Shown here piece after piece: positions 5,679 through 26,190 of a stretch of 33,215 nt of DNA. Within the stretch, counting starts at the first letter, position 1; each line of letters opens with the position of its first letter. Below the pieces are notes generated by a model, which was given only the letters and a program-made list of their open reading frames with translations, was not told the origin of the DNA and did not search any database. The DNA is from Candidatus Nanoanaerosalina archaeon. GTDB taxonomy: Archaea > Nanohalarchaeota > Nanosalinia > Nanosalinales > Nanoanaerosalinaceae. The stretch is from positions 1-33,215 of the forward strand of contig JALDAH010000003.1 in NCBI GenBank assembly GCA_022729275.1, written 5' to 3'. A program made the position numbers and the translations under genes.

Positions 5679-6443
5679 ATGAAACTCATAGACAACCACT
5701 GCCACCTTGACTTTCCACATTATGAAAAGGACAGGGAAGAGGTGATGGAAAAATGTATGGAGAAGCTGGAACTAGTCGTTAATTCCGGATCATCTCCTGA
5801 AAACAACATGTCCTCTCTGGAACTATCAAGAAAGTATGAAGGTTTCATTTATCCTACTATGGGTATGCACCCTGTTAAAATAGATGGTATGGGTTTAGAA
5901 CAGCTTGAGAAGGTTAAGCAAAATATAAGGGAACATCAAAAAGAGATTGTTGCGGTTGGAGAGATAGGGATGGACTATCATCACGAGACATCAAAGGAGG
6001 GCAGAAAAAAACAGGAGAGATTCTTCAAGAGATTACTGAAGCTTGGAGAGGAGACAGGTCTACCTGTTGTTGTTCATTCTAGGGATGCCGAAAAAAGAGT
6101 TCTTGACATCTTAGAGGATTATGAATTAGAATCTGTTATTATGCACTGCTTCAATGGTGATATGAACATGGTTGAAATAGCGGTAAAAAGAGATTATTAT
6201 ATATCTGTTTCCACACAGGTCCTTTACTCCAAAAGAGTCGGTAACATAGTTGAAAATACGCCCGTTGAGAATATACTTCTTGAAACCGATGCTCCTTTTT
6301 TGTACCCCGGCGATGGAAGGAACTTTCCCTACAAAGTACATGAATCGCTGATCAAGATAGCTGACATAACTGGTAGGGAGGAAGAAAAGCTTGGAAAAAT
6401 TTTCAATAGAAACACAAGGAATGCCTACCTAAAGGTTTTCTGA
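5679..6443 (+). CDS. tatD: TatD family nuclease/hydrolase
   Basis: DNHCH, GMHP, AVGEIGMD, VVHSR, MHCF, LLETDAP. Confidence 0.95.
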   Translation: MKLIDNHCHLDFPHYEKDREEVMEKCMEKLELVVNSGSSPENNMSSLELSRKYEGFIYPTMGMHPVKIDGMGLEQLEKVKQNIREHQKEIVAVGEIGMDYHHETSKEGRKKQERFFKRLLKLGEETGLPVVVHSRDAEKRVLDILEDYELESVIMHCFNGDMNMVEIAVKRDYYISVSTQVLYSKRVGNIVENTPVENILLETDAPFLYPGDGRNFPYKVHESLIKIADITGREEEKLGKIFNRNTRNAYLKVF

Positions 6444-6483: not shown

Positions 6484-7284
6484 ATGGCTGTCAAAAAGAA
6501 GGAACAAAATCTAAAAGACGTTAAAAACTTCATATTTGACCTTGATAGTACTGTATGGCATTGGAATAAACTTATTCCAGGTGTTAAACAGACTATTAGA
6601 AGGCTGGAAGCTAAAGGTAAGGACGTTTATTACGTTACTAATAATTCTATACTCACAAGAAAAGAATTTGCCGAAAAACTTTCGGATCTTGGTCTGAAAA
6701 CCGAGAAAGACAATGTTATCTGCAGTTCTTATGTGGCGGCCCAGGTATTTGCTGACAAGAACATTGACAGAGTCTATGCTATAGGCGAAAAGGGCCTATT
6801 GGATGAACTTGGTAAAGAGCATATCACGAAGTCCGATGATGCAGACCACGTTATAGTTGGTGTTGACAGGAATTTCAGTTACTGGAAGATGGCCAAAGCG
6901 GCCGAAGCCATAAGGTACGGTGCGAAGCTTTGGACCACGGCTTATGGAGAAAACTTTAGAGCTGGGGACAGGATTCTTCCGGGAACAGGCGCTCTACTTG
7001 AATCTGTTAAGAGAGCTGCTGATGTTGAAGATGCCGAGCTTATAGGAAAACCTTCAGACCATATGACCAAAATAATAAAGGATGAATTTCCTGTTCTCAC
7101 AAACAGAACAGTTCTTATAGGAGACCATTTGCAGACGGATATAGTTACAGGAAACAAATTAGGTATCAAGACAGGTCTTGTACTTGGAGGAACATCCAAG
7201 AAAGAAGATCTTTCGGACATAGAGAGTATCGAAAGACCTAATTTTGTTTTCAAGGACTTCAAGAGAATATTAAGGAAAGTTTAA
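6484..7284 (+). CDS. HAD-IIA (NagD-like) phosphatase
   Basis: FDLDST (motif I), VTNNS, IGKPS, IGDHLQTDI. Confidence 0.92.
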   Translation: MAVKKKEQNLKDVKNFIFDLDSTVWHWNKLIPGVKQTIRRLEAKGKDVYYVTNNSILTRKEFAEKLSDLGLKTEKDNVICSSYVAAQVFADKNIDRVYAIGEKGLLDELGKEHITKSDDADHVIVGVDRNFSYWKMAKAAEAIRYGAKLWTTAYGENFRAGDRILPGTGALLESVKRAADVEDAELIGKPSDHMTKIIKDEFPVLTNRTVLIGDHLQTDIVTGNKLGIKTGLVLGGTSKKEDLSDIESIERPNFVFKDFKRILRKV

Positions 7285-7847
7285 CTTTTTTCATTATTGA
7301 TGAAATCTTTGAGTTCGTCCACAGCTTTTTTCCTGTGAGAAATACGCTTTTTTGTTTCTATGTCCTCCGCAAAGGTATTTTCATGGTTTTCCGGTATGAA
7401 GACAGGGTCGTAACCGAATCCTCCGGATCCTCTCTTATCTCTAGAAATTTTTCCACGACACTTACCGGAAAAAGTCTTGACATCACCGTTTTTAGGGAAA
7501 TATATGGCTATGCTGGTTTTGAAAAAAGCTTTACGGTTATCCAGATTTTTCATGAGTTTTAAAAGACCTTCCTCACCACACTTTTTTATAAAAAAACCTG
7601 ACATTGAGCCTGGAAAACCGTTGAGAGATTTCACATAAAGACCTGAATCCTCAACCATCACAGGACTATCCACACCTGCTGCTTCAAACGAATCCCGGGC
7701 CTTCTTCCTTGCTACATCCTCTACGTCTTCATCATCAGTTTCCGGCACATTAACATTCAGTCTTTTGATTTTCAGATCAAAATCTTTCAAAGCGTGTCCG
7801 AACTCTCTGACCTTGTTATCGTTGCTAGTTGCAAAAAATATTTCCAT
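7281..7847 (-). CDS. rdgB: Non-canonical purine NTP pyrophosphatase (Ham1/RdgB/ITPase)
   Basis: FATSNDNK, EDSGL, GFPG, GFGYDPVF, SHR. Confidence 0.95.
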   Translation of the reverse strand: MEIFFATSNDNKVREFGHALKDFDLKIKRLNVNVPETDDEDVEDVARKKARDSFEAAGVDSPVMVEDSGLYVKSLNGFPGSMSGFFIKKCGEEGLLKLMKNLDNRKAFFKTSIAIYFPKNGDVKTFSGKCRGKISRDKRGSGGFGYDPVFIPENHENTFAEDIETKKRISHRKKAVDELKDFINNEKS

Positions 7848-11516: not shown

Positions 11517-14132
11517 ATGACCGATGAGATCCCAAAGAACTACGATTCCGAAAGAGTCGAGAGAAAGTGGAGGAAGAAGTGGAAGGATATGGGTATATAC
11601 GCCTATGATCCTAACTCAAATAAACCAACATATTCTATAGATACTCCTCCCCCATATGTGTCAGGTGATCTGCACGTAGGTCATGCTATGAGTTATACTC
11701 AGGCAGAGTTTATAGCTCGTTACAAGAGGATGAGAGGTTTCAATGTTTTCTATCCTATGGGTTTTGATGACAACGGATTACCCACCGAGAGATATGTAGA
11801 AAGAAAGTTAGAACTTGACAAACATGATATTGGTAGGACAGAGTTTATAAAGAAATGTGTGGATGTTACGGAAGATGGAAGGAAAAATTACAGGAATATA
11901 TGGGATCTTCTAGGGATATCTGTGGATTGGAACCTTCTATACACCACTATAAGCGATGAATCTCAGAGGGTTTCACAGCTATCTTTCATCGATCTCTACG
12001 AAAAAGGCCATATGTACAGGAAAGAGGATCCTGTTATATGGTGCCCGAACTGCAAGACAGGCCTTGCACAGGCTGATATAGAGGATGACGAGAAAAAAGC
12101 ATATCTTAATCATATAACTTTTCCCTTCGTCGATTCTGAAGAGAAACTTGAGATTTCTACCACCAGACCCGAACTGCTTTCATCATGTGTCGGCGTGTTT
12201 GTGCATCCCGAAGATAAAAGGTATTCCGAAGTCGTGGGTGAAAAGGTTGAGGTACCGATATTCGGTCAGAAAGTTGAGATAAGAGAAGATCACAAGGTAG
12301 ATCCCGAATTTGGTTCAGGAGCTGTCATGGTATGCACCTTCGGTGACAAGACAGATATAGAATGGTGGAAGGATCATGGATTGGATCTGAAGATTTCGAT
12401 AAACGAAGATGGAACCATGAACAAGAGAGCAGAGGACTATCATGGGCTAAGGATTGAGGAGGCTAGGGAAAAGATAGTAGAGGATCTAAGTTCTGAAGGC
12501 TTCATTAAGGGAAGGGATAAAATTTCACATGCTGTCCAGGTACATGAGAGGTGTGACAGCCCAATCGAATACTATCTGGCAGACCAGTGGTTCGTTAATA
12601 TGCTCGACAAAAAGGAGGAACTGAAGCAGAGAGCGGAAGGAATCAACTGGTATCCAGAATTTATGAAGAAAAGATTTGATGAATGGACAGATGGTTTAAA
12701 ATGGGACTGGTGCGTATCCAGACAGAGGTTTTATGGAGTACCGTTTCCTGTATGGTACTGTGATGATTGTAATGAGATAATACTTGCTGATGAAAAAGAT
12801 TTACCGGTTCAACCGAGTGAAGAACCGCCTTCAGTAGATGTATGTCCTGAATGTGGTAATGAAAGCTTTGAACCAGAGACTGATGTGATGGATACATGGT
12901 ACACATCATCGTTGACACCGCTTATAAACAGTCATTGGAGATCGGAAGAAGAAAAAAAAGGAATATACCCCATGGATTTGAGGCCTCAGGGATACGACAT
13001 CATAAGGACATGGGCTTTTTACACGATTCTTAAGAGTCATTTACATACTGATTCTATACCGTGGAAAGACATAATGATTTCAGGTATGGGAATGGCAGAA
13101 GAAGGAAAGTCGTTCTCAAAATCCAAAGGAATCGTTGTTCAACCCGAAAAGATAGTTGAAAAATATTCAGCCGACGCTCTTAGGTGGTGGTCCTCAAAAG
13201 TAAAGCTCGGCGAGGACCTTGTTTTCAGGGAAGACGATCTGGTTGCTGGACAGAAATTAACAACAAAACTTTGGAACGTTGCAAGGTTTTTGAACCAGTT
13301 CATAGAGGAAAGACCGGAAAAACCCGAAGATATAGGTGTTATGGACAAGTGGCTTTTAATGAAACTTGATGAAACCATTGAGGTAGCCACTGACTGGTTT
13401 GAAACTTACCAGTACAACAGATCTAAGGAAATAGTTAAACAGTTTTTCTGGCATGATATGGCAGACAATTATCTTGAGATTGTTAAGAAAAGGCTTTACG
13501 ATGGAGATGGAGCAGCTAAATTTGTCATGTACCGTGCATTCCTCGATATTTTGAAGATGATGGCTCCTGTTATGCCATTTATCACGGAGGAGATATACGA
13601 CAAGATGTACAGTGAAAACGAGAACAAGGAATCCATCCACAGTGAAGAATGGCCTGAAAAGTTAGAGGCAGGGTTTGAACATGAGTATGAGACAGGAGAG
13701 TTAGGTATAGAAGTTATTTCAGCTTTTAGGAAATACAAGTCAAGGGAGAATATGTCTCTAAACCATGAAATAACCGAGGCCAAAGTTTTTGGTCCTAAAA
13801 ACCTTTCAAAGGTTAAAATGGATATCAAGGAAGCTATGTCGATCCAAAATTTGGAGTTAAGCGATGAAGAACCTAAATTAGAACGGAAAATTAGTTCCGT
13901 AGACCTTGATTACTCGGTTGTGGGACCAAAATACGGAGAAAAAGTCAAGGATATTGAAGAAAAGATAGAGACCATTTCAGAAGATGATATCAAGGAAGGG
14001 AAATTAGAAATAATGGGGACGACACTTGTTGAAGGAGAAGAATTTGAGGTCGACAGGAAATACAGTTTGAAAGGAGAGAAAGGAGATATAGTTCAGACGG
14101 AGAACTGTGTGGTGCTGATAAACAGGAAATAA
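11517..14132 (+). CDS. valS: Valine--tRNA ligase, archaeal type
   Basis: DTPPPYVSGDLHVGH, TTRPELL, WDWCVSRQR, DVMDTW, SFSKS; SD AAGGTG. Confidence 0.97.
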   Translation: MTDEIPKNYDSERVERKWRKKWKDMGIYAYDPNSNKPTYSIDTPPPYVSGDLHVGHAMSYTQAEFIARYKRMRGFNVFYPMGFDDNGLPTERYVERKLELDKHDIGRTEFIKKCVDVTEDGRKNYRNIWDLLGISVDWNLLYTTISDESQRVSQLSFIDLYEKGHMYRKEDPVIWCPNCKTGLAQADIEDDEKKAYLNHITFPFVDSEEKLEISTTRPELLSSCVGVFVHPEDKRYSEVVGEKVEVPIFGQKVEIREDHKVDPEFGSGAVMVCTFGDKTDIEWWKDHGLDLKISINEDGTMNKRAEDYHGLRIEEAREKIVEDLSSEGFIKGRDKISHAVQVHERCDSPIEYYLADQWFVNMLDKKEELKQRAEGINWYPEFMKKRFDEWTDGLKWDWCVSRQRFYGVPFPVWYCDDCNEIILADEKDLPVQPSEEPPSVDVCPECGNESFEPETDVMDTWYTSSLTPLINSHWRSEEEKKGIYPMDLRPQGYDIIRTWAFYTILKSHLHTDSIPWKDIMISGMGMAEEGKSFSKSKGIVVQPEKIVEKYSADALRWWSSKVKLGEDLVFREDDLVAGQKLTTKLWNVARFLNQFIEERPEKPEDIGVMDKWLLMKLDETIEVATDWFETYQYNRSKEIVKQFFWHDMADNYLEIVKKRLYDGDGAAKFVMYRAFLDILKMMAPVMPFITEEIYDKMYSENENKESIHSEEWPEKLEAGFEHEYETGELGIEVISAFRKYKSRENMSLNHEITEAKVFGPKNLSKVKMDIKEAMSIQNLELSDEEPKLERKISSVDLDYSVVGPKYGEKVKDIEEKIETISEDDIKEGKLEIMGTTLVEGEEFEVDRKYSLKGEKGDIVQTENCVVLINRK

Positions 14133-18017: not shown

Positions 18018-18177
18018 TAATATCCATCATTTTTATTTTCTGAACTGATCGAGTTATTAACATCCTTTTCCAATTTAATGATGTAGTCTCTAGATTTTTT
18101 CCGAACCAAGAACTGCTCAAAATCACAGGATTGTTACTATCAAAAAGTTATTAAATAACGCTGTTAAATTTTTGTTT

Positions 18178-18996
18178 ATGCTTGACAAAGCTTCTTTTTC
18201 AGGAAAGGTTACCAAATATTTAGGAGGTTTACTCACTGGAATAGGGCTCTTAGGAGCAGTTTTTACTGGAAATATTGTGGCAGAAGGTTCTGAAAATATA
18301 CATAAAATGGAAGAGAAGGAACAAATCGAGATGCATTATAAGGATAGAATAGATTATGGTAACGCTATAAATAACGGACTTGATCTGAAAACAGTATTTT
18401 TAGGAGATTCTAAGGATGTTTACTCCCTGATTTTTACGGAGATAGAGATTCCTTACAGGCTAGAAGTAATGGCGGATCAAAACTTTCGGAATCGTATAAA
18501 CGAGATAACAGAATATGCCTTTGAGGAGGCAGTTAATGAGATTTACACGCTGTATTTCACGGAGGTAGATGTATCGGATGTACCGGAATTTTTGGTGAAC
18601 TTGTACGCAACAGAAGAAAGGATAATGAACAACGCGGTAGATATAACCATGGATAGAGTTTATGATAATTATGCTATTGAGCTGAAGAGGGTTGATTCAA
18701 AAAAAGTAAACGGAATTTACAAGCAGAGTTTTGAAGGGATTTACGAGTTTGAAAGAGATATTAAGTTCAGAAGAGATGGCGAATTGCTTTTTTCAAGTGA
18801 AGACATGAAAATCGGGACAGATATATACACTTGGAGATCCGAAGAATCCGAAAATATCTATTCGATTGTACTGAATTACCCAAAGCAGGATTTGGTACTA
18901 AATAATTATTCTAGCAATTTGGGAAAGTCTTCTGAAATTATCGAGATTTACAAGGGAGTTGAAAAAGATCTTGAATCCCTGATAGAATCCCTTTAA
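18178..18996 (+). CDS. Hypothetical protein with N-terminal membrane anchor
   Basis: Long ORF with hydrophobic YLGGLLTGIGLLGAVFTG near the N-terminus; no recognised motif. Confidence 0.75.
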   Translation: MLDKASFSGKVTKYLGGLLTGIGLLGAVFTGNIVAEGSENIHKMEEKEQIEMHYKDRIDYGNAINNGLDLKTVFLGDSKDVYSLIFTEIEIPYRLEVMADQNFRNRINEITEYAFEEAVNEIYTLYFTEVDVSDVPEFLVNLYATEERIMNNAVDITMDRVYDNYAIELKRVDSKKVNGIYKQSFEGIYEFERDIKFRRDGELLFSSEDMKIGTDIYTWRSEESENIYSIVLNYPKQDLVLNNYSSNLGKSSEIIEIYKGVEKDLESLIESL

Positions 18997-19011
18997 TATA
19001 ACACTGTTATA
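18997..19011. promoter_or_regulatory. Palindromic operator-like box TATAACA-C-TGTTATA upstream of nucS
   Basis: Perfect 7-1-7 inverted repeat; TTATAAGATT TATA element at 19019-19028; identical copy upstream of lhr. Confidence 0.65.
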
Positions 19012-19049
19012 CTTTTTATTATAAGATTGAATCCTAAATATAGGTAGTT

Positions 19050-19838
19050 ATGGAAGAGTTTTTCAGTGATCCGTCACTTGACACTGTTGAAGAAGTGCTT
19101 TCAGAGTACATCTCAAGGCCTTTTTTAGTTATTGTTTCTGGAGACTGTTCTGTGAATTATCAGGGCAGAGCCAAGTCAAAGCTTGATGCCGGACAGAGGA
19201 TTTTGATGATTAAGCAGGATAATGCTTTGCTTGTACATGGACCTGAGAATTATCAGCCCAAGAACTGGCAGCCACAAACGGATGAGTTTGAAATTAGGAA
19301 GGAGTCCGGAAAACTGGTATTGGTCTCAAGAAGATTTAATCCGAAGGAAGTAGTTGAGATACGTTTTGATTCCGTTGAGATGATTTTTGTCACCAGACTT
19401 GTGGACGAGAGAGATCTTGTGGTGAGAGGTCATGAAGTTGATATACACGAAGCTATTGAGAGAGATCCTAGCATAGTTGAGGAGGGTTTATGTGTTATAG
19501 AAAGGGAGAAAGAGACGGATGCTGGGTTTATAGATGTTTTTGCTAGAGGAGATGAAAACGAACTTGTTGTCATCGAGGTCAAGAGAAACCCTGACCACAA
19601 CTCTGTTCTCCAGTTGTCCAGGTACATGGATGAGGTTGAAAAGGAGTTTCCATCTAGAAGACTAAGAGGGATACTTGTGGCTCCTAAAGCCTCTGAAAAC
19701 GTTATAAATTACCTTAAAAAGAGAGATCTGGAGTTCGTAGAAATAAAGATGGAGGATGTCATACCCTCCTATGAAAAGTTCGCTCAAAGCCAGTTAAGCC
19801 TTGGACAGTTCGGGAATTCCTATAAAAAAGGAGATTAA
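19050..19838 (+). CDS. nucS: Endonuclease NucS/EndoMS (mismatch-specific)
   Basis: CSVNYQGRAKS, KQDNALLVH, PKNWQP, E...GFIDV...VIEVKR...QLSRY, RGILVAP; C-terminal PIP-like QLSLGQF. Confidence 0.95.
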   Translation: MEEFFSDPSLDTVEEVLSEYISRPFLVIVSGDCSVNYQGRAKSKLDAGQRILMIKQDNALLVHGPENYQPKNWQPQTDEFEIRKESGKLVLVSRRFNPKEVVEIRFDSVEMIFVTRLVDERDLVVRGHEVDIHEAIERDPSIVEEGLCVIEREKETDAGFIDVFARGDENELVVIEVKRNPDHNSVLQLSRYMDEVEKEFPSRRLRGILVAPKASENVINYLKKRDLEFVEIKMEDVIPSYEKFAQSQLSLGQFGNSYKKGD

Positions 19839-19996
19839 CTGTCTTTTTCCTTCTTTCCTTTCTTGGAAATCTTGGTCCTGTCCACGAGCTGAGTCTTGAC
19901 TTTTTCCAGTATAACTATTGTTGTTGCAAGGTCAAAGTTCGAGTTTGTATTTATCTTTCCTTCTTCATCTACTTCGATCTCGATTTTTTGAGTCAT
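19835..19996 (-). CDS. Small hypothetical protein (53 aa, not in the ORF track)
   Basis: MTQKIEIEVDEEGKINTNSNFDLATTIVILEKVKTQLVDRTKISKKGKKEKDS; AGGA upstream; shares a TTAA stop overlap with nucS. Confidence 0.6.
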   Translation of the reverse strand: MTQKIEIEVDEEGKINTNSNFDLATTIVILEKVKTQLVDRTKISKKGKKEKDS

Positions 19997-20086
19997 CGTT
20001 ATCCTATAAAAATTCGTGTTTTAAGTTTAAGTAAATTGTATTTTAAGCCATTTTTTATAAACTAGTTCTTTCAAATTGTTTTTTAG

Positions 20087-20410
20087 GTGATAAAACTGCC
20101 TAAAGAAAGAAACCCTATACTTGTACTGGTATTCACGCTGATAACCTTTGGAATATATGGGATCTACTGGATGTATCAAGTATTCAAGCAGGTACTTGAC
20201 CAGGATGAGAGCCCGATTCTGTGGCTTTTAGGGATGATGGTTCCTATCCTTAACTTTGTGATCTTATGGAAATTCTGCCAAAAAGTAGAGGATTATTCAG
20301 GTGGAGAACACGATGGAATTATACTATTCATTCTCTATGTGGTATTCGCACCTGCAGCAATCATCTTAATCCAGATGGATCTGAACAAAGGACTAAAAAT
20401 GAAGGGTTAA
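20087..20410 (+). CDS. DUF4234-like membrane protein
   Basis: RNPILVLVFTLITFGIYGIYWMY...IQMDLN pattern; start GTG 20087, or CTG 20096 if GGTGA is the SD. Confidence 0.8.
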   Translation: MIKLPKERNPILVLVFTLITFGIYGIYWMYQVFKQVLDQDESPILWLLGMMVPILNFVILWKFCQKVEDYSGGEHDGIILFILYVVFAPAAIILIQMDLNKGLKMKG

Positions 20411-20499
20411 GCATCCCTTCATATTTTTTCTTATTTTTTTCCTTGACCAAAAACCTCCCATTCCTTTTTTATATGTATTCACGTAATAGTAGTATATCT

Positions 20500-21657
20500 A
20501 TGGATTATGATGGTGAATACTCAGAAAAAGAAGATATATTGTTACATCATATGCACTCGATGTCATCCTCTTATGGAGAAAAATTAGTTGAAGAAGATAT
20601 TAATGGAGAAAAAAGCTTTAATGATTTCATAGAGGACGTATACAAGGACGGTAAATTTGAAGGCAACCATTTCATAGATTATTTTCAGATAAGAAAGAGA
20701 GTTGATAAAGATCTTAATTTGATCTTTAATGATACAACACACCGCATTAAAGAGGATAAATCCTATGATTTTCTCTATGAAAAAGTTAAGGAGGAAAACG
20801 GAGAATTCAGAAAGTTCAACAGACATGTATACTTCGAAATAAATGGGAAGGAAGCAGCAGTCATAAACTCTTCAGAGGTAGAGGTATCTGATTTTGGACA
20901 TGAAAGAAGCCATTTCACGGTTACCGGACTTGAAATGGGTTACGAGGAATACAAGGACATGACTTTGGATCAACTCACAGACCTTGCAAAAGAAGCTGAA
21001 ATGACTTCTGTAGCTCATCCCTACATGCCATTCTTCCAAACCGGCAAAGAACTTTTGTATGGGTTTCTCGATGAGACAAAGAAAGGAGAGTTCAAAGCGG
21101 CAATAAATTATGCTAAAGGTTACTTCCCGCTTGGAAACAAATTGACGAGGGGAGAAATACAGAAATACAATCCACTAAAAAAGTTTATAGATAGTAAAAG
21201 TGAGAAACTACCAAACTTTTTAACCGAACAGCTGAGAATCGATGAGGATTTGAAGGAGTTAGCAAAAAAATACGATTTACCTCTTATACCCGAAATAGAT
21301 GGGCATTCGATGGTACCAAAAAAACTACAGGGGTCTGCTCTGCTAAAGGATTCTGCCATGAAAGAACTTAGAGAGGGAGAGTTTCCCATGGAAAAAATAT
21401 TTGATGTTGAATTGGTTGATTACGGCAAGAAAGGAATTTCGATCCCTGAGTTTGTAAGGATGTATTCAGAAGTTTTTCCAGGTATGAAATATGAGAAAGG
21501 TTCGAAGAAAGGTTTGAAGGAGAGAATACTTTCTCCTATATTCAACTACTATCCTGAAGAATACATAGAAGATTTCTACAAATCTCTCGAATCATTGAAA
21601 GATGTCAGTGTAGAAGACATCAGAGAGAATTCTTATGATATCATAAAAAATAATTAG
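20500..21657 (+). CDS. Divergent PHP-superfamily metallo-phosphoesterase-like protein
   Basis: LHHMHS (HxH), SEVEV, SHFTVTG, VAHPY, EIDGH (DxH); start reassigned to ATG 20500 about 30 nt after TTTATAT. Confidence 0.6.
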   Translation: MDYDGEYSEKEDILLHHMHSMSSSYGEKLVEEDINGEKSFNDFIEDVYKDGKFEGNHFIDYFQIRKRVDKDLNLIFNDTTHRIKEDKSYDFLYEKVKEENGEFRKFNRHVYFEINGKEAAVINSSEVEVSDFGHERSHFTVTGLEMGYEEYKDMTLDQLTDLAKEAEMTSVAHPYMPFFQTGKELLYGFLDETKKGEFKAAINYAKGYFPLGNKLTRGEIQKYNPLKKFIDSKSEKLPNFLTEQLRIDEDLKELAKKYDLPLIPEIDGHSMVPKKLQGSALLKDSAMKELREGEFPMEKIFDVELVDYGKKGISIPEFVRMYSEVFPGMKYEKGSKKGLKERILSPIFNYYPEEYIEDFYKSLESLKDVSVEDIRENSYDIIKNN

Positions 21658-21680
21658 TATTCAGGATTTAACGATATCCA

Positions 21681-21983
21681 TCAATTCATCCATTCCTTTA
21701 TATTCTCTTTTTTCATCATACCGATTTCCTGTCCCTTGACATCTCCTTTTTCCATCTTGATAAAAGTGGGAACAGATCTTATACCATAAGTATTTGTGAG
21801 GTTCTGTTCTTCACCTATGTTTACTTTTCCAAAGTTTATGTCCTCCATCTCCTCCGATGCTTCTTTGAAGACAGGTTTCATTTTTTTGCAAGGCGCACAC
21901 CAAGGAGCCCAGAAATCGATTATCCATTTACCATTCTTTGTCTCTTCTTCAAAATTTTTCTCTGTCAATTTTTTTACTGGCAT
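21681..21983 (-). CDS. trxA: Thioredoxin
   Basis: DFWAPWCAPCK, GIRSVPT; start ATG 21983. Confidence 0.95.
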   Translation of the reverse strand: MPVKKLTEKNFEEETKNGKWIIDFWAPWCAPCKKMKPVFKEASEEMEDINFGKVNIGEEQNLTNTYGIRSVPTFIKMEKGDVKGQEIGMMKKENIKEWMN

Positions 21984-22046
21984 GAAAAACAGATTTTGAT
22001 ATGAATTTTTTAACATTTTAGGTTGTGAAAAATCAAAACTTTTTAA

Positions 22047-22069
22047 AAAATATAACACTGTTATATTTT
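22047..22069. promoter_or_regulatory. Palindromic operator-like box AAAATATAACA-C-TGTTATATTTT upstream of lhr
   Basis: Perfect 11-1-11 inverted repeat; TTATAAGATT at 22078-22087; core identical to the nucS box. Confidence 0.65.
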
Positions 22070-22107
22070 GGATGTATTTATAAGATTTTGAAATAAATTG
22101 GGAGTCT

Positions 22108-24747
22108 ATGTCTAAAATATCTTTTGTAAGTGAACAAAAAGCGTCCGAGAAGCTGCCTGAGGGTTATGCACCATACGTAAGAGAGTGGTTTTACGAGAAT
22201 TTTGATTCTTTAACTCCTCCACAGAGATTTTCATTCGATCTGATTCATGAGGAGAAGAACAGTCTTATATGTGCGCCTACGGGAAGCGGAAAAACTATTT
22301 CAGCTTTTTTATCAACACTGAATGAGCTTTTTGTGAATGGTGGAAACGGCGAACTTGATGACAAGGTTTATGTTCTGTATGTATCTCCTCTCAGAGCGCT
22401 GAACAACGATATACAGAGGAATCTTAAGGAACCTCTTGAGGGTATAAAGAAAAAAGCAGAGGAGATGGGTTATGATATACCTGAAGTAAGGAGCGCAGTC
22501 AGAACAGGTGACACCACAAAGAAAGAAAGAAGGAATATGAGGGAGAAACCACCTCATATATTGATAACCACTCCGGAATCTTTGGGCATCATACTGAACT
22601 CTCCAAAGTTTAAAGAGAGTTTTAGAGATGTTAAATATGTTATAACCGATGAAATACACTCTATATGTGATAATAAGAGAGGAGTTCATCTTTCGATTTC
22701 CCTTGAAAGATTGGAGGAAATGGTTAACGGAAAATTTACCCGAATAGGTCTTTCAGCCACACAGGCACCTATAGAAGAAATAGCCAAGTACCTGGTTGGT
22801 TTCAAATGGGAAGGAGAAGAGCTCAAAACAAGAGGATGTAACATAGTGGACGTTGCTGCTTCAAAGATGATGGATCTAAACGTTGTGTCCCCTGTAGAAG
22901 ACCTGATATATTCCCGACCCGATGAGATAAGAGGAGAAGCATACAGAAAAATTCACAAAATGATTCAGGACCATGAGTCAACTCTTATATTCACAAATAC
23001 CAGGGCTGCAACTGAGAGAGTAGTAAATACTCTGAAAAACATGTACTCTGATTTTTATGATGAAAACATAGGTGCACATCACTCGTCCATGTCCAGAAAC
23101 AAGAGGTTCGAAGTAGAAGAAGCGCTAAAAAACGGAGATCTCAAAGTTGCGGTTACTTCAACATCTCTTGAACTCGGTATAGATGTGGGTTATATAGATC
23201 TTGTGATCCAGATGGGTTCTCCCAAAGGCGTTGCCAGAGGAGTTCAAAGGATTGGAAGATCCGGTCACAACCTGAACGAAGTAGCTAAAGGAAGAATGGT
23301 TGTGATGGACAGGGATGACGCTCTTGAATGCACAGTTTTACTTAAAGACGCCAAGGAGGACAATATGGACAGGGTCAGGATTCCAAAAAACTGCCTGGAC
23401 GTTCTCTCACAGCACATAGTTGGAATGGCTTGCAACAAGGTATGGGGTGTTGAAGAAGCCTTTGATGTTATAAGAAGATCTTATAACTATACAGAGCTTG
23501 GAGAAAAAGATTACAAAAAGGTGCTTGAATATGTGGCGGGAGAATATGCGGAACTGGAGGACCAATACGTTTATGGTAAGATATGGGTCGGAGAGGACAA
23601 TGATAACCCTGAAAGAACTGTTTTCGGTAGAAGAGGTAAAATGACACGTGTTATATACATGACCAATATAGGAACGATACCTGATGAATCCAGCTACCGT
23701 GTTGCTTTGAGAGGTAACGATGAAATAGTTGGTACACTTGATGAGGCGTTTTTGGACAGGTTGACAAAGGGAGATGTTTTTGTTCTGGGAGGCAGCACCT
23801 ACAGGTTTATTTATGCAAGAGGTATGAAAGTATTCGTGGATGCTGCACCCGACAGCAGTCCCACGGTTCCATCCTGGTACTCTGAGATGCTTCCGCTCTC
23901 ATACGACCTTGGTAAAAACATCGGTGAGTTCTGCGATAAGATATCCAGGCAGCTGGAGATGGGTTTTGGAGAAGATGAAATCGTCAATTGGATTTTCTCA
24001 AACTACTATGTTGACGAAAACTCCGCAAAAGCTATTTTTTCGTACGTCAAAGAGCAGTATGATTACATGGGATTTGTGCCTTCCGACAAGAAGATTTTTG
24101 TGGAAAAATACGTGGATGATGACAACAGGTTGAACGTTGTTTTCCACACCATATTTGGTAGGGAGGTCAACGATGCTCTTTGCAGGGTTATGGCAAACAT
24201 AGTCTCAAAAGAAGTTGGTTCCAACATTGGTATGGTTGTTGATGACCACGGATTCGTTCTTAACTGTCCCAGAAGACCTGTGGATTACAGAAAGTTGGTT
24301 GACAGGTTGACAGAGGTCGATCTTAGAGCTGTTCTAAAGGATGCTGTCAGGAGAACTGAGCTGATGAAAAGACGTTTCAGACATGTTGCAGGGAGAGCAT
24401 TGATGATTCTGAGGAATTACAAGGGCAAGTCAAAAACCGTTGGACAGCAACAGATGAAGTCGCACTTCCTTTTGGCTGCATGTGAGAAAGTTGACAAGGA
24501 TTTTCCACTTGTGGAGGAAACATATAGAGAGATTATGGAGGATGCTATGGACGTTATACATGCGGAAGAAGTGGTTGAAGGCATAAAAAATGGCGGGATA
24601 GAGGTAGTTGTAAAAGAAAATGATGTTCCATCTCCTTTCGCTCATTCTCTTGTTTTGCAGGGGCAGTCAGATGTTATAAGGTTAGGTGATAGAAAAGAAA
24701 GGCTTAGACAGCTGCATGAACAGGTTCTTGCAAGGATAGAGGAATGA
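22108..24747 (+). CDS. lhr: ATP-dependent helicase Lhr (SF2, archaeal Lhr-core)
   Basis: APTGSGKT, SPLRAL, DEIH, GLSAT, HHSS, SLELGID, QRIGRSGH, NIGTIPD, PSWYSE. Confidence 0.95.
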   Translation: MSKISFVSEQKASEKLPEGYAPYVREWFYENFDSLTPPQRFSFDLIHEEKNSLICAPTGSGKTISAFLSTLNELFVNGGNGELDDKVYVLYVSPLRALNNDIQRNLKEPLEGIKKKAEEMGYDIPEVRSAVRTGDTTKKERRNMREKPPHILITTPESLGIILNSPKFKESFRDVKYVITDEIHSICDNKRGVHLSISLERLEEMVNGKFTRIGLSATQAPIEEIAKYLVGFKWEGEELKTRGCNIVDVAASKMMDLNVVSPVEDLIYSRPDEIRGEAYRKIHKMIQDHESTLIFTNTRAATERVVNTLKNMYSDFYDENIGAHHSSMSRNKRFEVEEALKNGDLKVAVTSTSLELGIDVGYIDLVIQMGSPKGVARGVQRIGRSGHNLNEVAKGRMVVMDRDDALECTVLLKDAKEDNMDRVRIPKNCLDVLSQHIVGMACNKVWGVEEAFDVIRRSYNYTELGEKDYKKVLEYVAGEYAELEDQYVYGKIWVGEDNDNPERTVFGRRGKMTRVIYMTNIGTIPDESSYRVALRGNDEIVGTLDEAFLDRLTKGDVFVLGGSTYRFIYARGMKVFVDAAPDSSPTVPSWYSEMLPLSYDLGKNIGEFCDKISRQLEMGFGEDEIVNWIFSNYYVDENSAKAIFSYVKEQYDYMGFVPSDKKIFVEKYVDDDNRLNVVFHTIFGREVNDALCRVMANIVSKEVGSNIGMVVDDHGFVLNCPRRPVDYRKLVDRLTEVDLRAVLKDAVRRTELMKRRFRHVAGRALMILRNYKGKSKTVGQQQMKSHFLLAACEKVDKDFPLVEETYREIMEDAMDVIHAEEVVEGIKNGGIEVVVKENDVPSPFAHSLVLQGQSDVIRLGDRKERLRQLHEQVLARIEE

Positions 24748-25434: not shown

Positions 25435-26190
25435 ATGGAGAGAATTTACAGAATTCTGTTCGCCTGTTTTTTTATACTGGGAGTGTTTTCACTGTTATTT
25501 TCAGAGTTATTTGAGTTATCCTCGGATAGTATAGATGTTGAAGAAGCTTCTATAAAAAGAGTGATAGATGGCGATACTGTTGTGTTAGAAGACGGTGAGA
25601 GAGTGAGACTTTTAGGTTTTGACAGTGAAGAAGAAGGAGAGGAGTGTTTTGAACCCGCAACGGAATATTTGAAAGAACTATTAGAATGTGATGATGTCGA
25701 ACTCGTTCATCAGGGTGAGAGGAACAGGGATTATTACGGAAGATTGTTAAGGTATATTTTTCAGGATGGGATAAATATCAACAAGAAGATGGTCAAAGGA
25801 GGACATGGAGTGGTGGTTCTGGGAGATGAAAACGATGAATACATAACGGAGATGATAGAAGCAGAAGAATACGCTTGGAGAAATAAAGCTGGTTGTTTAT
25901 GGAGTGAAAGAAAATTTAAAAATGTATGCGACGCTGATAATTATGTTGGCGAATGGAACATATTTGAAGGGAAGATAAAAGAAATACACAGTTTTGAGAC
26001 CGGATTTTTCATTAATTTTGGATCCGAATATCCTGATAACTGTTTCTCAGCAGTTATATGGGATGAAGAGGTGTTTGAAAAAAGTCAATTGAGAGAAGAA
26101 TCAGAAATCAAATTACACGGCGAGGTTGAAACTTACAGGGAAGAACCTCAGATAGTTGTTGACAGGAAGAGCCAGTTAATGATTAAATAA
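25435..26190 (+). CDS. Membrane-anchored thermonuclease (SNase) with C-terminal OB-fold
   Basis: N-terminal TM, RVIDGDT, RLLGFDSEE, DYYGRLLRY, GCLW; C-terminal FINFG...FSAVIW...YREEPQI. Confidence 0.9.
   Translation: MERIYRILFACFFILGVFSLLFSELFELSSDSIDVEEASIKRVIDGDTVVLEDGERVRLLGFDSEEEGEECFEPATEYLKELLECDDVELVHQGERNRDYYGRLLRYIFQDGININKKMVKGGHGVVVLGDENDEYITEMIEAEEYAWRNKAGCLWSERKFKNVCDADNYVGEWNIFEGKIKEIHSFETGFFINFGSEYPDNCFSAVIWDEEVFEKSQLREESEIKLHGEVETYREEPQIVVDRKSQLMIK

Follow-up and report, generated by a model that had tools for sequence, protein, structure and literature searches.

The stretch of DNA considered here (the window, 33,215 nt) is contig C59 of a Candidatus Nanoanaerosalina archaeon genome, G000 (849 kb in 82 contigs, 38% GC, 86% complete), and it contains two copies of a palindromic element in the promoters of the genes nucS and lhr. 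A pattern search of the window located the 17-mer AATATAACACTGTTATA exactly at 18995-19011 and 22049-22065; with up to three mismatches allowed, the other matches were only reverse-strand readings of the same two places, the chance expectation was 0.12, and at least four matches occurred in none of 100 shuffles. The core of both copies, TATAACA-C-TGTTATA, is a perfect 7-1-7 palindrome (18997-19011 and 22051-22065), which grows to 11-1-11 at lhr (22047-22069). The first copy (TATAACACTGTTATA, 18997..19011) occupies positions -53 to -39 relative to the nucS ATG and begins 1 nt after the stop codon (18994-18996) of an upstream 274-aa open reading frame (ORF). The core of the second copy occupies -57 to -43 relative to the lhr ATG, in the intergenic region shared with a divergent thioredoxin gene (21681..21983, minus strand; Thioredoxin, 4.8e-26) whose ATG (21983) lies 75 nt from the center of the palindrome. 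The palindrome centers, at 19004 and 22058, are 15 and 20 nt upstream, respectively, of the same TATA-box element, TTATAAGATT, found at 19019..19028 and 22078..22087 on the plus strand. This element is placed 31 nt before the ATG of nucS/EndoMS (19050..19838, plus strand, 262 aa) and 30 nt before that of lhr (large helicase-related; 22108..24747, plus strand, 879 aa). Both gene identities are supported by Pfam domains above cut-offs (NucS_N, 1.4e-19, and NucS_C, 1.2e-19, for the former; DEAD, Helicase_C, WH_Lhr, and DEAD_assoc, 1.3e-58, for the latter). The coordinates, the gene names, and the absence of any other perfect copy from the window all confirm an earlier interpretation of this DNA (the sequence-only reading), which had gone on to propose an SOS-like regulon. 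On sequence evidence, the palindrome qualifies as a genuine site of the transcription-factor type, for which a candidate factor can be named, and does not mark such a regulon.

Both promoters had also been taken to be leaderless. ORF calls in G000 were crude, giving a coding density of 91%. Of the 353 genes with at least 70 nt of upstream spacer, 101 have a TATA-like hexamer starting between -32 and -28 relative to the ATG, and elsewhere upstream such hexamers number roughly 1-15 per position. The leaderless-promoter reading therefore holds genome-wide, as judged from predicted starts. A search for sequencing runs gave four DNA runs, all belonging to one study, and no RNA run. TTATAAGATT is present in six copies in G000 and is thus a good TATA box and no special element. 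The general form of the palindrome, TATAAC-N3-GTTATA (12 specified positions), has 17 perfect copies in G000, with A-C/G-T as the preferred center, and TATAACANTGTTATA has 13. Changing the spacer to N2, N4, or N5 left 0, 1, and 0 copies, respectively; the everted form had none, composition-matched control palindromes had 0-1, and five scrambled control palindromes had no perfect copy. With 0, 1, 2, and 3 mismatches, the 14-position form occurs in 13, 2, 13, and 100 copies. The crude ORF calls place 14 of the 17 copies in intergenic DNA, and the remaining three, on inspection, lie upstream of real genes. Perfect copies of TATAACASTGTTATA number 11-27 in three genera of the window's family (genomes G001, G002, G003, G005, and G006) and 0-2 in other families, and the reversed control pattern has no copy in any genome. 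In the five complete genomes of family f3, perfect copies of the 12-position pattern number 1-7. At nucS and lhr, the palindrome is a nonrandom, conserved, protein-site-like element just upstream of the B recognition element (BRE) and TATA box, and these statistics and its conservation support what had been claimed for it on that point.

The distribution of the nucS and lhr sites among relatives bears on what the element does. A perfect site in the same position upstream of nucS was found in G001, G002, and G003, all of the window's genus, and upstream of lhr in G001 and G003; the best match at lhr in G002 has five mismatches. No match with two or fewer mismatches was found in 36 nucS or lhr upstream regions from other f1 genera and from families f3 and f4. 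Conservation at these promoters thus stands within the genus, apart from lhr in G002, and fails outside it, and the two sites are recent, genus-level acquisitions because they are confined to the window's genus. Sites shared by G000 and G003 lie at the predicted origin of replication (oriC), NAC/TctA, proteasome alpha, nucS, lhr, a DUF2582 gene, MgtE, and a gene for a helix-turn-helix (HTH) protein. In G000, the neighbors are the divergent NAC and TctA genes, proteasome alpha, the DUF2582 winged-helix gene, and MgtE-like, PIN, and AAA_17 genes, and one copy lies in the gap separating convergent NUDIX and DUF1295 genes; in relatives, they include genes for an AI-2E transporter, Nre, RtcB, a DEAD-box helicase, a ZIP transporter, tRNA synthetases, Lyase_1, and PrpD, among others.

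These neighbors can be set against the proposal of the sequence-only reading, a dedicated DNA-damage (SOS-like) regulon that coordinates repair genes and has the palindrome as its operator. Identical sites in the same promoter position at two repair genes speak for it, and a promoter motif common to some DNA-repair genes is what LexA/SOS boxes and the Orc1-2 regulon also present. Some other sites adjoin genes of DNA or nucleotide metabolism: the palindrome lies 8-15 nt after the polB stop codon in G000 (C10 4541), G001 (L147 1560), and G005 (L127 1563), with a downstream gene that varies between genomes (M24 peptidase, as in the G000 gap, or PrpD), and further copies follow a NUDIX gene and a YfbR-like nucleotidase gene or precede Nre in G006. 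However, no site was found within 300 nt upstream of RadA, photolyase, MCM, polB (its own promoter), the PolD small subunit, TatD, Ham1, or SNase, where the best matches differ at 3-4 of 12 positions and thus at least three; three of these siteless genes are in the window (TatD DNase, 5679-6443; Ham1 [ITPase], 7281-7847; SNase-like, 25435-26190). UvrB was not found in G000, a genome that is 86% complete. Most neighbors are unrelated to repair (NAC, proteasome alpha, TctA, MgtE, the AI-2E transporter, RtcB, and tRNA synthetases), the nucS and lhr sites are genus-specific, and it is oriC and the HTH gene that form the conserved core of the targets. Neither a LexA-like nor an Orc1-2-type link was found for the palindrome. 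The sequence-only reading had offered, as grounds for its own rejection, copies upstream of functionally unrelated genes or promoters of nucS and lhr in relatives without the site; by those terms, the SOS-like model is largely refuted, and we consider it very improbable. For annotation, the case is a warning that a common promoter palindrome at two repair genes does not amount to an SOS system.

The structure of the repeat itself raises the question of whether it acts as nucleic acid. Conserved 6-bp arms around a variable 3-nt center could form a stem-loop in RNA or single-stranded DNA (a terminator or processing site), several copies lie 8-15 nt after stop codons, and the extended lhr copy has a folding energy of -5.8 kcal/mol (z = -5.1). 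The nucS core hairpin, however, reaches only -1.5 kcal/mol, the arms are invariant across three families and show no compensatory changes, no T-tract terminator was called at either window site and no Rfam match was obtained, and the palindrome is also present in the origin and ahead of promoters. A hairpin or a mobile-element remnant is therefore the explanation to which we give the least credence. A miniature inverted-repeat transposable element (MITE) or other mobile repeat was rejected because the flanks of the copies are not conserved.

Outside the window, the palindrome is found in the predicted replication origin. Archaeal origins are usually described as origin recognition boxes (ORBs) flanking an AT-rich unwinding element, and the origin here was predicted from ORBs and the adjoining orc1. 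In G000, orc1/cdc6 lies at C68 12733-13926 on the minus strand, is followed by the gene for the PolD small subunit, and has an upstream spacer of ~310 bp with three perfect copies and one degenerate copy of the palindrome (centers at C68 14057, 14143, 14194, and 14223). From the orc1 ATG (13926) outward, the predicted oriC (C68 13970-14235) consists of a mini-ORB-like box (about 13972-13984), an ORB with a G-string (13998-14026), the palindrome centered at 14057, an inverted ORB (about 14099-14121), and the three further copies beyond it. Copies cluster directly upstream of the orc1 orthologue in all five close relatives checked. The comparison was extended to the orc1-upstream regions of 20 relatives and G000, where canonical ORBs (TCCA-N3-GAAA core and G-string) occur in inverted pairs with the palindrome between them. 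In 19 of these 21 Nanohaloarchaeota genomes, comprising all examined members of families f1, f3, and f4, inverted ORB cores lie on both sides of the best palindrome (0-2 mismatches of 12); the single f2 genome and the single f5 genome have no ORB-bracketed palindrome. The palindrome center is 36-40 bp from the orc1-proximal ORB core in all 19, and the distal core is 45-81 bp away, in steps of ~18-19 bp that match one, two, or three tandem copies. In the complete f3 genomes, the origin copy is always among the perfect copies. Two related observations were made in origin-adjacent DNA. Copies of TATAACGSCGTTATA occur inside a large ORF, of no recognized family, adjoining oriC in G020 (L068 6853 and 8260) and G030 (L071 4102 and 5490), at positions that match between these two genera, and may be a coding coincidence or functional origin-proximal sites. 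Upstream of orc1 at L293 (G043) and L294 (G041), a different perfect palindrome, TTCTATATAGAA, lies between ORB-like boxes, with GTTATATAAC (half-sites everted) nearer the gene, so lineages may differ in their origin-core palindromes.

The same location would suit a variant mini-ORB bound by Orc1/Cdc6, either the initiator or a Cdc6-like paralogue, with dispersed copies acting on transcription. Sulfolobus Orc1-2 reportedly acts as a regulator in the DNA-damage response (PMC9738581) and would be a precedent. The palindrome is next to orc1/cdc6 and flanks an AT-rich region, as is expected of an origin box, and one G000 copy is 406 nt upstream of the gene for a Cdc6-like paralogue. Like ORBs and mini-ORBs, it is repeated in the orc1/cdc6 upstream spacer, forms a dyad around CA(C/G)TG, and has dispersed copies (PMC1904270; PMC4010727); its center matches that of the Pyrococcus mini-ORB TTCCAGTGGAACT (PMC1904270), and Pyrococcus likewise has about 30 dispersed mini-ORBs. 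Nevertheless, these origins also contain canonical ORBs with G-strings next to the palindrome, which already account for the sites of the initiator, and it is on this ground that the mini-ORB reading was dropped. ORBs are polar, whereas the palindrome is symmetric and has neither a G-string nor the TTCC...GGAA core. The HTH promoter also carries the site in DPANN genomes that have no copy upstream of orc1. The Cdc6-like paralogue was rejected as the binder, as the site is 406-417 nt away in G000 and G001 and the G003 contig carrying the paralogue has no perfect copy. A role as a mini-ORB is accordingly judged improbable.

A candidate for the binding protein was found at the second conserved location. 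In G026, one of only three perfect copies is 13 nt before a gene for a 113-aa HTH protein (HTH_3, 7e-6, 26.4 bits, above the 23-bit cut-off; PF17762, 2.4e-4). The G000 orthologue is encoded at C11 7704-8057 (minus strand, 118 aa), outside the window, as had been surmised for the factor, and its neighbors are a tRNA, a 134-aa ORF, and a nucleotidyltransferase-like ORF. Between the TTAAAA box and the ATG of this gene is TATAACCGCGTTATA, centered at -15, and a palindrome between a TATA box and the gene's own ATG suggests the geometry of autorepression. Orthologues of about 108-122 aa are present in 37 of 41 genomes; none was found in the f5 genome and three incomplete genomes, and the f2 match is weak. 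When the 200 nt preceding the HTH gene were searched in 36 relatives, the closest match to the palindrome had 0, 1, and 2 mismatches in 8, 11, and 7 genomes, respectively (26 of 36); the genomic background is 0.02 per 200 nt, and none of 36 control regions has such a match. The orthologues share the motif GYTQ-EIA---L--TQPAVSQYL, and the putative recognition helix, TQPAVS-Y, together with R54, is invariant in 29 of them. In the G000 protein, all HTH families, HTH_3, HTH_37, and Sigma70_r4 among them, are below Pfam cut-offs, and PDB searches with the protein and its profile gave sub-threshold generic HTH matches and no close relative. The family is widespread in archaea (848 cluster representatives at E <=1e-10), its homologues are named only 'hypothetical' or 'HTH domain-containing' in their sources, and HTH_ParB is assigned to 15-19% of members of related Atlas clusters. 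A DUF2582 winged-helix protein was also considered as the cognate factor and set aside: the palindrome is 57-58 nt upstream of its gene in G000, G001, and G003, which make up only 3 of 18 orthologue loci, and failure to find the gene in other f1 genera or in f4 further weighs against that role.

The association of this HTH gene with the palindrome extends beyond Nanohaloarchaeota and spans distances at the phylum level. A scan of species genomes for the helix [VIL]TQPAVSQY gave 393 loci, of which 80 were kept and 55 examined after removal of 21 from the Nanohaloarchaeota clade, three on short contigs, and one on a mislabeled contig. Five of the 55 carry the site (three perfect, two with one mismatch), all of them labeled Nanoarchaeota or unclassified archaea. 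In four, the copy abuts the TATA box with its center at -35 to -40; the L285 copy runs into the start codon. G041, G042, and G044 have 3, 1, and 2 perfect copies genome-wide, respectively, with one at the HTH promoter each time. No convincing site was seen at the Aenigmatarchaeota and Bathyarchaeota HTH loci examined. Given that the HTH promoters of other DPANN carry the site and their orc1-upstream regions have no copy, the link between protein and palindrome appears to be ancient, entry of the palindrome into oriC seems to be an innovation of Nanohaloarchaeota, and the spread to promoters including nucS and lhr appears later still. Two contigs with a nanohaloarchaeal-type HTH gene, L216 and L288, are labeled Planctomycetia and Colwellia and are probably mis-binned.

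The most conserved palindrome targets are therefore the predicted origin and the candidate factor's own promoter. We propose, with a probability of about 60%, that the 17-mers in the window are copies of a 15-bp protein-binding palindrome whose candidate binder is the small HTH protein and whose targets are the origin, the protein's own gene, and promoters acquired at the level of the genus. The protein would probably bind as a symmetric dimer and would repress its own gene. In the window's genus, extra copies have spread to about a dozen intergenic regions, the nucS and lhr promoters included. At those two promoters, the bound factor could modulate recruitment of TFB/TBP, because the site abuts the upstream edge of BRE/TATA in leaderless promoters; the effect could have either sign, activation or repression, and could tie nucS and lhr to the state of replication or growth instead of DNA damage. 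At the origin, the region between the ORBs is the expected loading place of the MCM helicase, and the candidate factor may act on MCM loading or exit, by analogy with the Sulfolobus protein UBP discussed below. The HTH protein and the palindrome are thereby a first candidate transcription-factor/operator pair for Nanohaloarchaeota, one that is concrete and testable; cultivated nanohaloarchaeal co-cultures exist, making bench follow-up feasible. Among the matches listed in the literature searches, none described the palindrome motif, supplementary files being outside their scope.

Several results weigh against this proposal. Ten of the 36 relatives have more than two mismatches upstream of the HTH gene, and in family f4 the promoter site (two or fewer mismatches) is present in only 2 of 7; the binomial P of ~1e-35 for the HTH promoters overstates the case because related genomes are not independent. 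Methanobacteriaceae HTH loci with the same recognition helix have no convincing site, and the G000 HTH protein stays below the cut-offs of all Pfam and NCBIfam families. In five orc1-upstream regions from four other DPANN genomes with the HTH-promoter site, no palindrome was found; the link to the origin is therefore lineage-specific and is no proof that the same protein acts there. The 12-position motif has 17 perfect but only four one-mismatch copies in G000, and such an excess of perfect copies is unusual for a transcription-factor regulon. Lastly, among 50 dispersed sites counted in G000 and five relatives, five have no downstream gene start (e.g., G000 C1 4705, between convergent genes) and therefore cannot be promoter operators.

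Some of these features would be expected if the sites were architectural (nucleoid-associated, MCM-related, or centromere/parS-like), bound by the HTH protein or another protein and not acting directly on transcription of nucS or lhr. In their surplus of perfect copies the sites recall parS, some of them lie between convergent genes, and copies cluster near oriC in the complete genomes G020 (5 of 7 within 6.3 kb), G030 (3 of 7 within 3 kb), and G026 (2 of 3 within 600 bp). The HTH similarity to ParB, including the PF17762 match in G026 and the Atlas assignments, is weak but points the same way, and in Sulfolobus, binding of UBP is uncorrelated with transcription of neighboring genes (PMC12141716). 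On the other side, 26 of the 50 dispersed sites are concentrated 35-75 nt before start codons, a narrow interval immediately ahead of the TATA box (6 are closer and 13 further), and a position in its own promoter is classic for a transcriptional repressor. The 118-aa protein has no N-terminal (CTPase) domain of ParB, and no gene resembling ParA/SegA was seen beside its own gene in G000. A purely architectural role is thus considered unlikely, if less so than the mini-ORB, and the palindrome is not an ORB, a LexA-type regulon, or a ParB/parS system.

The closest analogue of the element is the Sulfolobus pair of ucm and UBP. The ucm motif is located halfway between ORB2 and ORB3, and oriC1 requires it for firing; UBP, which contacts MCM, has 329 mostly intergenic chromatin immunoprecipitation (ChIP) peaks (PMC12141716). 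An essential extra origin motif and its binder were demonstrated only in 2025, for Sulfolobales; the distribution of UBP is limited to Sulfolobales and Desulfurococcales, and the authors (Dhanaraju et al. 2025) ask whether other archaeal lineages have analogous origin proteins (PMC12141716). Both systems place a short sequence-specific motif between the two inverted ORBs of an origin adjoining orc1, both have further copies of that motif at many loci, mainly in intergenic DNA (although f3 genomes have only 1-7 copies), and in both the protein is small (111 aa for UBP and ~118 aa for the candidate). The differences are also clear. The ucm is an asymmetric motif of 10-11 bp, TTATACAAAC (preprint 10.64898/2026.08.15.744077), whereas the nanohaloarchaeal motif is palindromic, 15 bp long, and present in 1-3 tandem copies at a fixed distance (36-40 bp) from one of the ORBs, with 1-27 perfect copies per genome as opposed to 329 ChIP peaks. 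UBP has a beta-rich saddle fold and contacts DNA as a monomer, in contrast to the putative alpha-helical HTH of the candidate, whose gene also has an autoregulatory site; the PDB searches with the candidate and its profile list no UBP chain, no search for a UBP homologue in G000 having been made. The Sulfolobus pair was tested at the bench, whereas the nanohaloarchaeal pair is predicted from sequence.

Other regulators offer partial parallels. XRE/Cro-type autoregulated repressors likewise combine a small HTH with a perfect inverted repeat over their own core promoter, but the matches of the G000 protein to such families are below cut-offs, and its second conserved target is the replication origin and not a neighboring operon. 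Bacterial CtrA, Spo0A, and Fis/IHF bind both oriC and promoters. They resemble the arrangement here in that one sequence-specific protein would have sites in the origin and in many promoters; they belong to another domain of life and to other protein families, and control of replication initiation is in our case putative. The comparison with Fis/IHF has been made for UBP (PMC12141716). A more ambitious proposal follows the same lines: a DPANN HTH protein with a dual role, as an origin-core component gating MCM loading or exit and as a transcription factor, in a CtrA-like circuit with nucS, lhr, NAC, the proteasome, and its own gene, and with UBP as its nonhomologous counterpart. We regard this as speculative, with the odds well against it. 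If true, archaeal lineages would have independently recruited sequence-specific accessory factors into the core formed by ORBs and the DNA unwinding element (ORB-DUE-ORB). In any case, the place of ucm in the origin is taken in this DPANN order by another motif, with another candidate protein, at strikingly constant spacing.

The remaining observations concern individual loci. In the window, a possible weak third copy, AATAACGCTGTTAAA (18153..18167), differs at 2 of the 12 specified positions and is centered 18 nt upstream of the ATG (18178) of the 274-aa ORF, unannotated, ahead of nucS. This copy overlaps a possible TATA box of that ORF and may be a chance match, as there are 63 such two-mismatch copies in the genome. 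Near dispersed copies in relatives, the RtcB gene of G006 (L140 1617-3101), 65 nt downstream of a palindrome, contains an intein (Intein_splicing match), and a gene for an NrdR-type regulator (Zn_ribbon_NrdR and ATP-cone) is located at L118 817-1272 of G003, 301 nt from a copy; the NrdR homologue of G000 (C38) has no palindrome site. The nucS homologues of both genomes of genus g4 have one in-frame TGA each (G006:C128:1-696 and G009:C4:1219-1983), which could reflect sequencing error, a pseudogene, or recoding. Matches to Lhr are split in two near residue 236 within one open frame in four genomes (G011:C3, G027:C25, G030:C1, and G034:C22), which suggests a small insertion near that residue in those genomes. 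The rest of the window is mostly housekeeping and encodes five aminoacyl-tRNA synthetases, aRF1, an RNase J-like protein, S2, L7Ae, an FtsY/SRP54-type protein, prefoldin, and a tRNA-intron endonuclease.

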